Shown here piece by piece: positions 6,249 through 13,908 of a stretch of 64,000 nt of DNA. The position numbers and the translations under genes are program-made. Every line of letters begins with the position of its first letter. Positions within the stretch are counted from its first letter, which is position 1. The stretch is taken from assembly GCF_003334385.1 (NCBI RefSeq), contig NZ_QOWN01000010.1; one strand, 5' to 3'. This DNA comes from Escherichia coli. Its GTDB lineage: Bacteria > Pseudomonadota > Gammaproteobacteria > Enterobacterales > Enterobacteriaceae. The notes under the pieces were generated by a model. It had not been told where the DNA came from and did not search any database. It saw nothing but the letters and a program-made list of their open reading frames with translations.

Positions 6249-6371
6249 TGCGGTGTTTCTCCAGATGTGGCCCATCTGAGGCCGTGTTGGTGCGCAGCTC
6301 GAAGGCTACGTCGAGTCTGTTTTGGCAGTCACCTTAAAGTATAGATAGCTGACAAAAAAGGCTCTCGCGCT

Positions 6372-6439: not shown

Positions 6440-8722
<2,283 letters not shown>

Positions 8723-8776: not shown

Positions 8777-9634
8777 TTAATGGTGGTCGTTTTCACGCAG
8801 GTAAATGACCCAGTATGTCAACCCAACCAACAAACCACCACCGATAATGTTGCCGATCGTAACCGGAATCAGGTTATCAGTGATGAAATTCATCACGGTC
8901 AGGTGAGAAAAATTTTCCGGTGCAGAACCGACTGCGGTCCAAAATTCCGGGGATGCGAAGTCGCGGATTACAATACCCATCGGGATCATAAACATGTTTG
9001 CGATACTGTGCTCAAAACCGCTGGCAACAAACATCGCGACCGGCAGCACCATAATGAACGCTTTGTCCATCAGGCTGCGGCCAGAATAACTCATCCATAC
9101 TGCCAGACATACCATCAGGTTTGCCAGGATACCAAGACAGACGGCCTCAATAAAAGTATGGTGCACTTTGTGGTCGGCGGTTTGTAGGACGTTTAGTCCC
9201 CATTGACCATTTGCGGTCATATACTCGCCGGAAAGCCACATTAAAAGTACAAACAGCAGTGCGCCGACCAGGTTGCCAAAATAGACATTTAGCCAGTTTT
9301 TCGCCAACTGACCCCAGGTGATGCGCCCACTCGCCTTAGCAACAACAATCAACACGGTGGAAGTAAAGAGATCGGCTCCGCAGACAACACAAAGAATCAG
9401 CCCCAGAGAGAAGCAAATGCCGCCAACCAGTTTTGCCATGCCGAAGGGCATTGTGCCTGTGCCAGTGGTTGCTGTGATATAGAAGACGAATGCGATTGAG
9501 ATGAAAACACCGGCGGTAATCGCCAGATAGAAAGTCTTAAGCGGATGTTTCGTTGCTTTATAGACACCCGCCTCTTCGGCCACTTTGGCCATTGCAGCAG
9601 GAAGTAAAAGATCAAAAGGGTTGTCAGCTTTCAC
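8777..9634 (-). CDS. focA: Formate channel FocA (FNT family)
   Basis: Hydrophobic FNT-family ORF; 285-aa product if initiated at GTG (plus-strand CAC 9632-9634) giving (M)KADNPFDLL…; ORF-track extension to 9808 lies in the promoter region. Confidence 0.9.
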   Translation of the reverse strand: MKADNPFDLLLPAAMAKVAEEAGVYKATKHPLKTFYLAITAGVFISIAFVFYITATTGTGTMPFGMAKLVGGICFSLGLILCVVCGADLFTSTVLIVVAKASGRITWGQLAKNWLNVYFGNLVGALLFVLLMWLSGEYMTANGQWGLNVLQTADHKVHHTFIEAVCLGILANLMVCLAVWMSYSGRSLMDKAFIMVLPVAMFVASGFEHSIANMFMIPMGIVIRDFASPEFWTAVGSAPENFSHLTVMNFITDNLIPVTIGNIIGGGLLVGLTYWVIYLRENDHH

Positions 9635-10038
9635 ACTAACTCTCTCTTTATTAAGTCGGCGACGAGATACTAACAAAGCATTATAGATGAGAAATTGATA
9701 TAGATCATATCTCGCCTGGCTTATAGGCCCGTAACTCGCATGGTTTTTATGCAAATACGGAGTAAATATTTGATTATCCAAATAAAAATAAATTTTAAAA
9801 ATTAACAAATGAGTTGAATTTTTTCCGCATCCTCCGCTAAAACAGTTACTTAAAAGGGAGCATCAGGCGAATAAAGTAACAATATCGATCGTATTTATTA
9901 AATACAAATTACCGATATTTAACCTTATAATTACAATTATTTTATTAATGCAAATATATGTAAAGCGGGGCATTAAAAAACGCCCCGTAATATAACTCAG
10001 ACTAATCATTAAGCCTACATTGCGTAGGCTATTTGATT
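9635..10038 (-). promoter_or_regulatory. focA-pflB multi-promoter regulatory region (AT-rich, ~400 bp)
   Basis: Long AT-rich non-coding interval upstream of focA; the pfl operon is known to be driven by multiple FNR/ArcA/IHF-dependent promoters. Confidence 0.6.
9695..9708 (-). promoter_or_regulatory. FNR-type site (TTGAT-N4-ATCAt)
   Basis: Plus strand TTGATatagATCAT at 9695-9708 matches the FNR consensus with one mismatch; lies upstream of focA. Confidence 0.5.
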
Positions 10039-11799
10039 TTATTTTGCCCAGAATGCTGCTTTGGCGCGCTGCAGCTTTTCGTAGGCCTTCAACAACGACT
10101 GATGTGCAGCAAACGCGTGCAGATCGCTATCTACCGGTTGCAGGCCGTAAAACGCCGCTTCGCCGCTCATTGCCGCACTGGCGGCTTCTACGGCATCTGC
10201 GCCGTACATGCGAACAAACGCATTCAGATATTGCAGCGGCTGGCGATCTTCTTCCTGTGCCAGTAATAACAACGTTTGCAGGCAGCGATAATAGTTGGCG
10301 CGTTCCGGACTAAATACTGATGAGTTAAACTCCATCGTCCATTCGGTCCAGACCAGAGCCTGTTCCAGATCGCCACCAGCCAGCGCCAGCATGGCTTTTA
10401 ATTCACCGATACGCAGGGTGTACCAACCGTTATCCGACCCGGTCGCCAGACCCAACAGCTCACGCACGCGGGTAAAGTCATCAAAACCTTCTTCATCCAG
10501 TTGCTCGATGAGGTTCAGGTAATCTTCTTTTTCCCACTCGCTGCCTGGTAGCGAAAGAATCGTTTCACGTAAATGGCTGCCCATACTGTTATTCGCGAGC
10601 CACAGATCTTCAGCCGGATAAATATCGGACATGCCAGGCACGATAATACGGCAAGCATAAACGCCCAGATGCTCGTAATCGGCAATATAAACTTCTTTAT
10701 CTTCTTTGTTGAAGATAGCCATCAGTGTGGCGAACTCTTCTTCCGTGGTGCCGGAGAAATTCCAGTCCACAAACGGATAATCGGCATCCTGCTTGAACAG
10801 GTCCCAGGAGATTAAACCGCTGGAATCGATAAAGTGCGTTTCGAGGTTGGTATGTTCAGCGACTTCTTCATCATCGAAGGTTGGCGGAGTAAACACATCC
10901 AAATCTTTCAGGCCACGACCTTGCAGCAGCTCGGTCACGGTACGTTCCAGTGCTACGCCAAAATCAGGATGCGCACCGAAAGAGGCAAAGCAGGTACCGT
11001 TAGCAGGATTGAACAGTACCACGCAAATCACCGGATACTGGCCGCCAAGCGAACCGTCATAAGCGAAGATTGGGAAACCCTCCGCTTCCAGCGTTTCGAT
11101 GGCTTCAACTACTGCTGGGTAACGCGCCAGCACGTCTGCCGGGATCTCTGGCAGGCTGATGCTTTCAGCAATAATGCGGTTTTTCACGTAGCGTTCGAAA
11201 ACTTCAGACAATCCCTGAACGCGTGCTTCGTTGCGGGTATTACCTGCGGACATACCGTTGGAGACGTACAGGTTACCAATGATATTCATCGGAATATAAA
11301 CGGTCTGATTGTCGGACTGACGCGTAAACGGCAGGCCGCAAATACCACGATCTTCGTTACCGGATTGTAGGTCAATCAGCATGCTGCCGGTCAGTTCATT
11401 CTCCGGATCATAAAACGCGCGCAGACGGTCATCGAGCAGCCCTTCTGGCACATCGTCATTTTCGGTCAGTGGGAACCATTTTTCGTTGGGATAATGCACG
11501 AACGGACCGTTGGCGATGGTTTCGCCCAGCCAGAAGTCCGCAAAAAAGTAGTTGGTTGAGAGACGCTCGAAATATTCACCGAGTGCAGAAGCCAGCGCCG
11601 CTTTCTTGGTTGCGCCTTTACCGTTGGTAAAACACAGTGCGCACTCTTTGTCGCGAATATGTACAGACCAGACGTTAGGCACGGGATTCAGCCAGGAGGC
11701 CTCTTCAATCTGAAAGCCGAGGTCTGAAAGTTTTTGCTGGAAGCGAGCGATGGAATCTTCCAGAGCGGCATCTTTGCCGGGGATAAATGTTTGCGTCAT
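10039..11799 (-). CDS. ycaO: YcaO-domain protein (ATP-dependent; linked to S12 beta-methylthiolation)
   Basis: 586 aa from MTQTFIPGKDAALEDS…; founding member of the YcaO family; synteny downstream of focA. Confidence 0.9.
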   Translation of the reverse strand: MTQTFIPGKDAALEDSIARFQQKLSDLGFQIEEASWLNPVPNVWSVHIRDKECALCFTNGKGATKKAALASALGEYFERLSTNYFFADFWLGETIANGPFVHYPNEKWFPLTENDDVPEGLLDDRLRAFYDPENELTGSMLIDLQSGNEDRGICGLPFTRQSDNQTVYIPMNIIGNLYVSNGMSAGNTRNEARVQGLSEVFERYVKNRIIAESISLPEIPADVLARYPAVVEAIETLEAEGFPIFAYDGSLGGQYPVICVVLFNPANGTCFASFGAHPDFGVALERTVTELLQGRGLKDLDVFTPPTFDDEEVAEHTNLETHFIDSSGLISWDLFKQDADYPFVDWNFSGTTEEEFATLMAIFNKEDKEVYIADYEHLGVYACRIIVPGMSDIYPAEDLWLANNSMGSHLRETILSLPGSEWEKEDYLNLIEQLDEEGFDDFTRVRELLGLATGSDNGWYTLRIGELKAMLALAGGDLEQALVWTEWTMEFNSSVFSPERANYYRCLQTLLLLAQEEDRQPLQYLNAFVRMYGADAVEAASAAMSGEAAFYGLQPVDSDLHAFAAHQSLLKAYEKLQRAKAAFWAK

Positions 11800-11928
11800 G
11801 AAAATCACTTTAGTCGTACGGAAAGCGCGCAATAATACGGGTTTTATCTCAAAGGCGCTATCACCGCCGCCATGCCGATGAACTGTTGACTATGCTTTTA
11901 GCGGATAAACCACGTTAAGAGCATAAAA

Positions 11929-12621
11929 ATGAAGGCGTTCGATCTCCACCGTATGGCATTTGATAAAGTGCCTTTTGATTTCCTTGGCGAAGTTGCACTA
12001 CGTAGTCTTTATACCTTTGTACTGGTCTTTTTGTTCCTCAAAATGACCGGAAGACGCGGTGTGCGGCAGATGTCGCTGTTTGAAGTTTTAATCATTCTGA
12101 CGCTGGGATCAGCGGCGGGAGATGTGGCGTTTTATGATGATGTGCCGATGGTCCCGGTACTTATCGTCTTTATTACTCTGGCGTTGTTATACCGCCTGGT
12201 AATGTGGTTGATGGCGCACAGTGAAAAACTGGAAGATCTTCTGGAAGGCAAGCCAGTTGTCATTATTGAAGATGGCGAGCTGGCCTGGTCGAAACTCAAT
12301 AACTCCAACATGACGGAATTTGAGTTCTTTATGGAGCTACGATTGCGTGGCGTGGAGCAGCTGGGGCAGGTACGTCTGGCGATTCTCGAAACCAACGGGC
12401 AAATCAGTGTCTATTTCTTTGAAGATGACAAGGTGAAACCGGGTTTACTTATTTTACCCAGTGATTGTACGCAGCGTTACAAAGTGGTGCCGGAGTCGGC
12501 GGACTATGCCTGTATTCGTTGTAGTGAAATCATTCATATGAAAGCGGGGGAAAAACAATTATGTCCGCGCTGTGCAAATCCAGAATGGACGAAGGCAAGT
12601 CGGGCAAAACGGGTGACCTGA
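11929..12621 (+). CDS. ycaP: DUF421-family inner-membrane protein
   Basis: 230-aa ORF with N-terminal TM segments; C-terminal CxxC…CxxC (CIRCSE…CPRC); synteny. Confidence 0.85.
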   Translation: MKAFDLHRMAFDKVPFDFLGEVALRSLYTFVLVFLFLKMTGRRGVRQMSLFEVLIILTLGSAAGDVAFYDDVPMVPVLIVFITLALLYRLVMWLMAHSEKLEDLLEGKPVVIIEDGELAWSKLNNSNMTEFEFFMELRLRGVEQLGQVRLAILETNGQISVYFFEDDKVKPGLLILPSDCTQRYKVVPESADYACIRCSEIIHMKAGEKQLCPRCANPEWTKASRAKRVT

Positions 12622-12819
12622 CAGTAAAAACATCGGCTTTTTGCTAATAATCCGAGAGATTCTTTTGTGTGATGCAAGCCACATTTTTGCCCTCAACGGT
12701 TTTACTCATTGCGATGTGTGTCACTGAATGATAAAACCGATAGCCACAGGAATAATGTATTACCTGTGGTCGCAATCGATTGACCGCGGGTTAATAGCAA
12801 CGCAACGTGGTGAGGGGAA

Positions 12820-13908
12820 ATGGCTCAAATCTTCAATTTTAGTTCTGGTCCGGCAATGCTACCGGCAGAGGTGCTTAAACAGGCTCAACAGGAACTGCGC
12901 GACTGGAACGGTCTTGGTACGTCGGTGATGGAAGTGAGTCACCGTGGCAAAGAGTTCATTCAGGTTGCAGAGGAAGCCGAGAAGGATTTTCGCGATCTTC
13001 TTAATGTCCCCTCCAACTACAAGGTATTATTCTGCCATGGCGGTGGTCGCGGTCAGTTTGCTGCGGTACCGCTGAATATTCTCGGTGATAAAACCACCGC
13101 AGATTATGTTGATGCCGGTTACTGGGCGGCAAGTGCCATTAAAGAAGCGAAAAAATACTGCACGCCTAATGTCTTTGACGCCAAAGTGACTGTTGATGGT
13201 CTGCGCGCGGTTAAGCCAATGCGTGAATGGCAACTCTCTGATAATGCTGCTTATATGCATTATTGCCCGAATGAAACCATCGATGGTATCGCCATCGACG
13301 AAACGCCAGACTTCGGCGCAGATGTGGTGGTCGCCGCTGACTTCTCTTCAACCATTCTTTCCCGTCCGATTGACGTCAGCCGTTATGGTGTAATTTACGC
13401 TGGCGCGCAGAAAAATATCGGCCCGGCTGGCCTGACAATCGTCATCGTTCGTGAAGATTTGCTGGGCAAAGCGAATATCGCGTGTCCGTCGATTCTGGAT
13501 TATTCCATCCTCAACGATAACGGCTCCATGTTTAACACGCCGCCGACATTTGCCTGGTATCTATCTGGTCTGGTCTTTAAATGGCTGAAAGCGAACGGCG
13601 GTGTAGCTGAAATGGATAAAATCAATCAGCAAAAAGCAGAACTGCTATATGGGGTGATTGATAACAGCGATTTCTACCGCAATGACGTGGCGAAAGCTAA
13701 CCGTTCGCGGATGAACGTGCCGTTCCAGTTGGCGGACAGTGCGCTTGACAAATTGTTCCTTGAAGAGTCTTTTGCTGCTGGCCTTCATGCACTGAAAGGT
13801 CACCGTGTGGTCGGCGGAATGCGCGCTTCTATTTATAACGCCATGCCGCTGGAAGGCGTTAAAGCGCTGACAGACTTCATGGTTGAGTTCGAACGCCGTC
13901 ACGGTTAA
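12820..13908 (+). CDS. serC: Phosphoserine aminotransferase
   Basis: 362 aa; class-V PLP aminotransferase, N-terminus [15 protein letters not shown]. Confidence 0.97.

Follow-up and report, generated by a model that had tools for sequence, protein, structure and literature searches.

The divergent ycaO and ycaP genes of Escherichia coli: a published ribosomal-protein thioamide synthase beside a probably unrelated DUF421 membrane protein

The question raised by positions 10,039 to 12,621 of the Escherichia coli DNA analyzed here (64,000 nucleotides of contig NZ_QOWN01000010.1, assembly GCF_003334385.1; hereafter the window) is whether the two genes that stand back to back there, ycaO and ycaP, belong together, and what each of them does. 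A sequence-only reading had described a stand-alone YcaO enzyme divergent from a cysteine-rich membrane protein, had implied that the two are paired, and had expected a ribosomal protein, S12, as the YcaO substrate. In our analysis the locus very probably consists of two independent, already catalogued E. coli genes that are functionally unlinked, and its content is already known. The window is E. coli chromosome with an ordinary ycaO-ycaP pair: positions 9600-12900 have 100% DNA identity with strains of the B/BL21 lineage, BLR(DE3) among them, and with C strains, and the ycaO-ycaP region was found in all 5426 of 5426 complete E. coli genomes. Both genes are supported as open reading frame (ORF) and as RefSeq coding sequence (CDS), ycaO on the minus strand at 10039-11799 (586 amino acids) and ycaP on the plus strand at 11929-12621 (230 amino acids), so that the divergent arrangement and the limits given earlier are exact, running from the ycaO stop codon (10039-10041) to that of ycaP, with a spacer of 129 bp between the genes. 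The annotated ATG of ycaO lies at 11797-11799; a mechanical ORF call reaches a TTG at 11832, whereas MTQTF is the start both in RefSeq and in the 586-residue crystal-structure sequence.

The YcaO protein comprises an ATP/Mg2+-binding catalytic domain (residues 59-391, minus strand 10627-11625; Pfam PF02624, E 4e-75, model positions 1-325 of 325) and the helical C-terminal domain YcaO_C (residues 407-581, minus strand 10057-10581; PF18381, E 3.5e-65). Its score of 575 bits against NCBIfam TIGR00702, for which the cutoff is 75.65, places it in the YcaO superfamily, and at 1356 bits it is a full-length match to PDB entries 4Q84, 4Q85 and 4Q86, the last two of which are nucleotide-bound crystal structures. 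Its calculated pI is 4.38 (published value 4.4), and all 13 of the residues mutated in PMC13063428 are present (L55, F57, R79, D88, E202, R295, T317, E320, D325, L329, R444, R463 and F491). Because of the full-length match to 4Q84, the pI and these 13 residues, the product of the window's ycaO is, judged by its sequence, EcYcaO itself (UniProt P75838), the published uL16 Met82 thioamide synthase. The structure has been known since 2014, and the uL16 Met82 substrate was established in March 2026 (PMC13063428). Acidity is the signature by which the authors of that work recognise YcaO proteins of the uL16 type (PMC13063428), and it is common to all 80 syntenic YcaO orthologues in the comparative sample described below, with pI values of 4.33-4.59.

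The background for uL16 is now extensive. In a 2.0-Å ribosome structure, Met82 and Gly83 of uL16 were seen to be joined by a backbone thioamide; the ribosomes came from aerobically grown cultures, and YcaO was suggested as the candidate enzyme (PMC7550191). The thioamide is lost on deletion of ycaO in both BW25113 and BL21(DE3) (Rice et al., Biochemistry 2026, PMC13063428). The same study, which used log-phase cells, reports that co-expression leads to complete modification of uL16, that in vitro the purified enzyme thioamidates full-length uL16 only when ATP, Mg2+ and Na2S are present, that it binds folded uL16 with a Kd of about 10 nM but neither binds nor modifies short peptides of uL16, and that the Klebsiella and Pseudomonas orthologues likewise thioamidate uL16 (PMC13063428). 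With ATP and Mg2+, EcYcaO activates the backbone carbonyl of Met82 in folded uL16; sulfide attacks that carbonyl, the oxyanion is phosphorylated, and departure of the phosphate leaves a thioamide beside the peptidyl-transferase centre. The enzyme recognises the tertiary structure of the very basic uL16 through its large acidic surface (pI 4.4), and since it reads tertiary structure in this way, neither an E1-like or RRE partner nor a leader peptide is needed. These steps are demonstrated in the literature for this exact gene (PMC13063428). E. coli is without TfuA, and the physiological sulfur donor of EcYcaO is stated there to be explicitly open (PMC13063428). As a separate observation, EcYcaO matches residues 148-722 of NCBIfam TIGR03549 (OsmC domain/YcaO domain-containing protein) at 682 bits, with a cutoff of 900; close relatives therefore exist in which an N-terminal OsmC domain (thiol peroxidase-like, two-Cys) is fused to YcaO, and such a fusion may be a lead to the sulfur or redox partner of the stand-alone enzyme.

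The RefSeq product name of ycaO, S12 methylthiotransferase accessory factor, belongs to another proposal, in which YcaO is an accessory factor that aids RimO in the methylthiolation of S12 Asp88, possibly with YcaP. The NCBIfam equivalog NF040716, 'YcaO_for_S12', is matched at 917 bits against a cutoff of 700, which shows orthology to E. coli YcaO and not the function in the model's name. The experimental root of the name, as it is summarised in PMC13063428, lies with Strader et al. 2011, according to whom YcaO co-purified with tagged S12 and deletion of ycaO lowered S12 modification from 99% to 84%. Against it, RimO on its own can modify an S12 peptide in vitro and deletion of rimO abolishes the modification entirely, AlphaFold3 gives an interface predicted TM score (ipTM) of 0.31 for YcaO with uS12 and 0.16 for YcaO with RimO, and the substrate for which direct, nanomolar recognition by YcaO has been demonstrated is uL16; the S12/RimO link of YcaO is accordingly treated as indirect (all PMC13063428). 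No evidence connects YcaP with S12. An accessory role for YcaO in S12 methylthiolation is thus very unlikely, the 2026 work having largely set it aside, and RefSeq and NCBIfam still carry an S12 name that is out of date. This stale label steered the sequence-only reading, which was right to expect a ribosomal-protein substrate in place of a peptide natural product but named S12 Asp88 where the substrate is uL16 Met82 (PMC13063428), and it is liable to mislead others.

Whether ycaP has any part in this chemistry was approached from both genes. On the YcaO side, a scan of 100,044 species genomes with E. coli YcaO gave 80 loci, all in Enterobacterales and with YcaO identities of 81-99%, and over these the backbone aroA-serC-[ycaP]-ycaO-focA-pflB is conserved. 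The slot between serC and ycaO holds ycaP in 45 of the 80, always divergent from ycaO and with a median spacer of 137 bp. It is without ycaP in the other 35, which take in all 22 of 22 Erwiniaceae as well as Lonsdalea, Serratia, Mangrovibacter and several Enterobacteriaceae. Where the distance between serC and ycaO was measured in such loci (15 of them), it is 194-472 bp, and the ycaO promoter block is unchanged. In Citrobacter youngae CCUG 30791 (L012, 3090-3534) and Citrobacter sp. Cu233 (L013, 5554-6000) ycaP has suffered an internal deletion that leaves the first 18 or so codons and the 3' end, while an intact copy is present in C. youngae ATCC 29220 (L023); to judge from these remnants, the loss in Citrobacter is recent and has left ycaO untouched. 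In Entomohabitans teleogrylli (L072, 5703-6000) the ycaP-ycaO spacer is about 300 bp long (373 bp between the ends of the tblastn matches), and the inserted DNA contains GC-rich hairpin-like repeats with T-runs, which may be a repetitive extragenic palindromic (REP) or terminator-like element.

On the YcaP side, the neighbourhoods of five distant homologues could be judged (P0131, P0165 and P0126 were left out, their contigs being too short), and in none of these five, all on long enough contigs, is there a YcaO neighbour. The first of them (P0125, 48% identity) lies with ppsA, aroH and a LysR regulator, the second with a thiolase gene and pyrD, the third with a catalase and two DUF892 genes, the fourth with DUF2383, YtxH, DUF5670, DUF892 and CinA genes, and the fifth with genes for CorA, an amidase and a racemase. 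YcaP has an ipTM of 0.11 in the published AlphaFold3 screen that used EcYcaO as bait against the whole proteome (PMC13063428, supplementary sheet '1 - EcYcaO').

The regulatory DNA also falls into two parts, the 129-bp spacer holding two separately conserved elements of different type, one for each gene. A consensus scan for promoters and terminators found no more sites than in shuffled sequence and missed both the conserved promoters and the main terminator, and the elements given here were taken instead from cross-species alignments and RNA folding. For ycaO, the 60 or so nucleotides directly upstream of the ATG stand out across Enterobacterales, with or without ycaP, by a conservation far above that of the remaining spacer. 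The predicted promoter and leader (minus strand, 11800-11862) include a -10-like hexamer at 11832-11837, TATTAT here and TATCAT in most genera, an upstream GATAGCGC at 11855-11862, in which an invariant ATAG lies inside GATAGCG about 18 nucleotides upstream of the hexamer, and a short GC-rich 5' leader in which no significant RNA structure was found (z = +0.53). The hexamer block presumably acts as the ycaO promoter, and the upstream GATAGC element could be a transcription-factor site. For ycaP, the predicted element is an extended -10 of the sigma-S type on the plus strand, CTATGCTTTT at 11890-11899 with its core CTATGCTT at 11890-11897, about 30 nucleotides upstream of the ATG. It reads G-CTATGCTTA in most genera and is conserved in nearly all of the ycaP-bearing genera that were aligned. 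Compared with the sigma-S extended -10 consensus KCTAYRCTTAA (quoted in PMC5650638), the E. coli sequence ACTATGCTTTT at 11889-11899 agrees at 8 of 11 positions, and the form found in most genera, GCTATGCTTA(T), at 10 of 11; it probably serves as the ycaP promoter. The window holds three perfect matches to the sigma-S extended -10 core, a chance-level number since three or more occur in 17 of 100 shuffled sequences; one of them, TCTATACTTT, is on the minus strand at 6336-6345, between pflB and pflA.

Because of the synteny, the YcaP-side neighbourhoods, the ipTM of 0.11 and the separate regulation, ycaP is best regarded as independent of ycaO. Their adjacency reflects a lineage-specific, largely enterobacteriaceal presence of ycaP between serC and ycaO, and the evidence points against a functional link; the pairing that the sequence-only reading implied finds no support in gene order, in regulation or in predicted interaction.

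What, then, is YcaP? Its Pfam matches are DUF421/YetF_C (PF04239, E 7.9e-17, residues 97-170) and YetF_N (PF20730, E 9.5e-5). Three transmembrane (TM) helices in the YetF_N part, residues 16-97 or thereabouts (plus strand, 11974-12219), are indicated by Pfam, by hydropathy and by a structural model in which the helices span residues 16-39, 50-68 and 74-97. They are followed by a single YetF-type soluble subdomain (residues 97-170, plus strand 12217-12438), recognised by Pfam and, in PDB entry 3C6F (YetF), by both sequence (E 4.7e-6) and fold (Foldseek E 0.018, probability 1.00, 62 columns). The DUF421 match covers model positions 2-76 of 129 only, and a second YetF subdomain was not found in YcaP, the second stretch of 3C6F giving an i-E of 240 and the Pfam match ending at position 76. 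In its place comes a knuckle of four cysteines, C195-x2-C198…C212-x2-C215 (plus strand, 12511-12573), with a conserved W220 behind it. The sequence-only reading had pointed to an ending of the form CIRCSE…CPRC and a possible zinc ribbon, and the cysteines, C195-I-R-C198…C212-P-R-C215 or CxxC-x13-CxxC, are there and are conserved.

The conservation of this knuckle was followed through an exhaustive search of 1.84 billion representatives, which returned 4725 YcaP relatives; a word-indexed search had given a best 120 that were all Enterobacteriaceae, and the wider family came into view through the exhaustive one. Among the best 150 of the 4725, 93 are full-length (29-48% identity), and 78 of these 93 have CxxC…CxxC at the same place. 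In an alignment of 86 sequences with a mean column identity of 37%, C195, C198, G199, C212, C215 and W220 are each at least 90% conserved, and the four cysteines are kept in 44 of the 45 syntenic ycaP orthologues. The retention in 78 of 93 relatives and the columns of at least 90% mean that the cluster is not a chance one but genuine, and it appears to be zinc-ribbon-like or rubredoxin-like. An AlphaFold2 model built on the same 86 sequences (mean predicted local distance difference test score, pLDDT, 90.3) has the three TM helices, an alpha/beta subdomain at about residues 99-163 and a tail of three short strands, or short beta-hairpins, that bears the four cysteines (pLDDT 93-98). When the tail was compared with the PDB by Foldseek, the matches, weak but mutually consistent, were rubrerythrin's rubredoxin-like domain, Rpb12, desulforedoxin, and the zinc sites of MCM and Sir2, all with E > 1, and against zinc-ribbon profiles it gave weak matches (E 0.003-0.7; 17 bits, where the cutoff is 63). 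TM1 and TM2 are joined by a basic loop (KMTGRRGVRQ), TM2 and TM3 by an acidic one, which by the positive-inside rule suggests that the C-terminal half is cytoplasmic, and this side would suit the predicted metal site. Throughout a large DUF421 subfamily, a nearly invariant Cys4 knuckle stands where YetF has its second subdomain.

As to the biology of YcaP, the most likely role, by analogy, is that of a stationary-phase or general-stress membrane protein, because of the sigma-S signal upstream of it and the stress-gene neighbours of its distant homologues. In stationary-phase O157:H7 EDL933, ycaP expression was 66-fold RpoS-dependent (wild type over rpoS mutant) in one microarray study, and the table in which it is listed also holds yciGFE, ycaC and ygaM (PMC2907692). 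The protein would then be a three-helix inner-membrane member of the YetF/DUF421 family with a Cys4 knuckle and its own sigma-S-type promoter, and, by analogy with YetF, would most likely form an oligomer, anchored in the membrane, that alters the properties of the membrane under stress. Distant genes of the YcaP type (DUF421 plus Cys4) were seen among general-stress genes in three of the loci inspected (L089, 2169-7315; L091, 2179-5701; L092, 626-5701), where the neighbours encode a large catalase that includes a DJ-1 domain, DUF892 proteins (YciE/F-like, twice), DUF2383, YtxH, DUF5670, CinA and short-chain dehydrogenases. This arrangement suggests that membership of YcaP-type genes in a stress regulon predates the enterobacterial ycaP. 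The paper in which ycaP is named most often, where a ycaP::kan deletion serves only as a linked marker for focA alleles, says nothing on function.

Several considerations weigh against this picture of two unlinked genes, one of them a stress gene. The role proposed for YcaP is read from its relatives and neighbours, and its RpoS dependence comes from a single O157:H7 microarray study. The synteny sample covers YcaO of at least 81% identity, within Enterobacterales, and stops short of the uL16-type loci of Pseudomonas or Vibrio. A slot without ycaP need not mean a genome without it; the YcaP-type homologue P0125 (48% identity, from a complete genome of 4.5 Mb) sits elsewhere, beside ppsA-aroH homologues. 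Lastly, a low AlphaFold3 ipTM is an imperfect negative, the true uL16 enzyme RoxA having scored 0.57 (PMC13063428).

These points bear on the idea that YcaP is after all a functional partner of YcaO in Enterobacteriaceae, for instance with its Cys4 site carrying iron, sulfur or a persulfide and delivering the sulfur that YcaO requires in vivo, or with the protein anchoring YcaO or uL16 at the membrane during stationary phase. The genes are divergent neighbours in 45 of the 45 species with ycaP in the slot, at the short median spacer of 137 bp noted above, the in-vivo sulfur donor of EcYcaO is open in an organism without TfuA (PMC13063428), and the four near-invariant cysteines have a rubredoxin-like predicted fold. 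Yet in 35 of the 80 close species an acidic YcaO persists along with its promoter but with no adjoining ycaP, distant YcaP-type genes adjoin ycaO in 0 of the 5 neighbourhoods judged, the ipTM is 0.11 (PMC13063428), and each gene has its own conserved promoter, of a different type. The timing also fits poorly, in that the uL16 thioamide is present in aerobic cultures (PMC7550191) and was studied in log phase (PMC13063428), whereas ycaP is reported to be a stationary-phase RpoS gene (PMC2907692); and CxxC…CxxC knuckles as a rule bind zinc in a structural role. A partnership of any kind is on this evidence highly improbable, and the specific form in which the Cys4 site holds iron, sulfur or persulfide and supplies or gates sulfur for the thioamidation of uL16 by YcaO seems to us exceedingly doubtful. 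Were YcaP such a supplier, the membrane status of the stationary-phase (sigma-S) cell would be linked to modification of the peptidyl-transferase centre. As to the sulfur route to YcaO in vivo, the evidence does not point to ycaP.

The remaining alternative is a cryptic cluster for a peptide that is ribosomally synthesised and then modified post-translationally (RiPP) with an overlooked precursor gene, for which it can be said that YcaO enzymes are typical RiPP enzymes. All ORFs of at least 15 codons lying mainly within the focA-ycaO, ycaO-ycaP and ycaP-serC spacers, 11 in number, were sought in the 80 species, and no flanking small ORF in these three spacers is conserved there as coding sequence; in most genera 10 of the 11 are either broken or missing. 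Those rejected as precursors for being interrupted in most genera include a 48-codon ORF on the minus strand (9863-10009), a 43-codon ORF on the plus strand (11750-11881) and eight others. The eleventh, of 21 codons on the plus strand at 9740-9805, is open in 34 of the 80 loci, but its divergence at codon positions 1, 2 and 3 (0.316, 0.316 and 0.328) has no third-position bias, it has no Shine-Dalgarno sequence, and it is AT-rich and overlaps FNR half-sites that are conserved in the regulatory region of focA. In an alignment of 71 species, the focA upstream region contains a fully conserved TTGATATAGATCAT, the FNR-type palindrome TTGAT-N4-ATCAT, at 9695-9708, and more conserved AT-rich blocks at 9763-9800; because of these FNR-type and AT-rich regulatory blocks the ORF, on the opposite strand to focA, appears conserved, and its conservation looks to be that of DNA and not of a coding sequence. 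An Rfam scan of 9000-13200 at E values up to 1 found no RNA family. Among the annotated neighbours of ycaO there is no E1-like, RRE, dehydrogenase or TfuA gene, and against the SagD-type model TIGR03604 YcaO reaches 43.7 bits, far below the cutoff of 219; EcYcaO moreover rejects short peptides and requires folded uL16 (PMC13063428). A hidden RiPP cluster is essentially excluded. The sequence-only reading was therefore correct in taking ycaO as the name-giving member of its family, standing alone with no E1-like or dehydrogenase partner and with no precursor-peptide gene nearby, on which the literature agrees; the conserved small ORF beside ycaO that it had named as able to change this interpretation was looked for in the 80 species and was not found.

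The surroundings of the pair are those of the E. coli chromosome, with the gene order pflB, focA, ycaO, ycaP, serC, aroA, ycaL. On one side of ycaO lie focA (minus strand, 8777-9634) and pflB (minus strand, 6440-8722), and on the other ycaP, serC and aroA. Downstream of ycaO there is a probable intrinsic terminator (minus strand, 9953-9987), a CGGGGCG…CGCCCCG hairpin at 9966-9987 followed by a U-rich tail. The 101-nucleotide stretch around it folds at -30.2 kcal/mol (z = -4.35; as good a fold in 0 of 200 shuffles), and the stem positions are 73-94% conserved over the 71 species. A second, weaker hairpin (minus strand, 10012-10030) was the sole hairpin flagged by the consensus scan.

The practical consequence is that the adjacency of ycaO and ycaP is not to be read as a functional cluster. 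For ycaO there is little that is new, and the modest gains are the recognition of a Cys4-bearing branch of DUF421 and a warning about a stale annotation. YcaP represents a large and as yet uncharacterised branch of YetF/DUF421, whose mark is the Cys4 knuckle in place of the second subdomain and which regulation and gene neighbourhood connect with general stress responses; the branch offers a concrete handle on a protein of unknown function, an incremental gain in annotation.

Comparison with known systems places each gene among its relatives. EcYcaO (P75838; PDB 4Q84, 4Q85 and 4Q86) is the same gene as the window's ycaO, with no differences, the same YcaO and YcaO_C domains and no partner genes. 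The methanogen YcaO that acts on McrA glycine (TIGR03266; MJ1094, PDB 6PE3) shares with EcYcaO the ATP-dependent backbone thioamidation of a folded protein outside any RiPP pathway. It is distant in sequence (E 7e-4 to 6PE3; 39 bits for TIGR03266, cutoff 365), and it accepts short peptides and usually pairs with sulfur delivery of the TfuA/ThiS type, whereas EcYcaO requires the whole of uL16 and works in a cell with no TfuA. The azoline cyclodehydratases of thiazole/oxazole-modified microcin (TOMM) systems, SagD-type proteins (TIGR03604) with E1-like and SagB partners, have in common with EcYcaO the YcaO ATP-binding domain and the activation of amides, but the E. coli locus has neither their precursor peptide nor an E1-like or RRE partner or dehydrogenase. 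For YcaP the nearest known system is that of YetF and YdfS of Bacillus subtilis (DUF421; 3C6F), with which it shares the three N-terminal TM helices, the first soluble subdomain and a stress-linked biology. In Bacillus, proteins of the YetF family influence stress resistance and the properties of the spore's inner membrane, and they form tetramers in crystals (PMC10126465). YetF carries two soluble subdomains in tandem, from which a tetrameric basket under the membrane is built, in contrast to the one subdomain and Cys4 knuckle of YcaP, and YetF and YdfS are spore proteins dependent on sigma-G in the forespore, whereas YcaP would depend on sigma-S in an organism that forms no spores. With zinc ribbons and rubredoxin-like domains (RNA polymerase subunit P/Rpb12, the C-terminal domain of rubrerythrin, desulforedoxin) the tail of YcaP shares a pair of CxxC knuckles, separated by 13 residues and borne on short beta-hairpins, although its matches to them are below significance and the YcaP knuckle, unlike theirs, is fused to a membrane protein.

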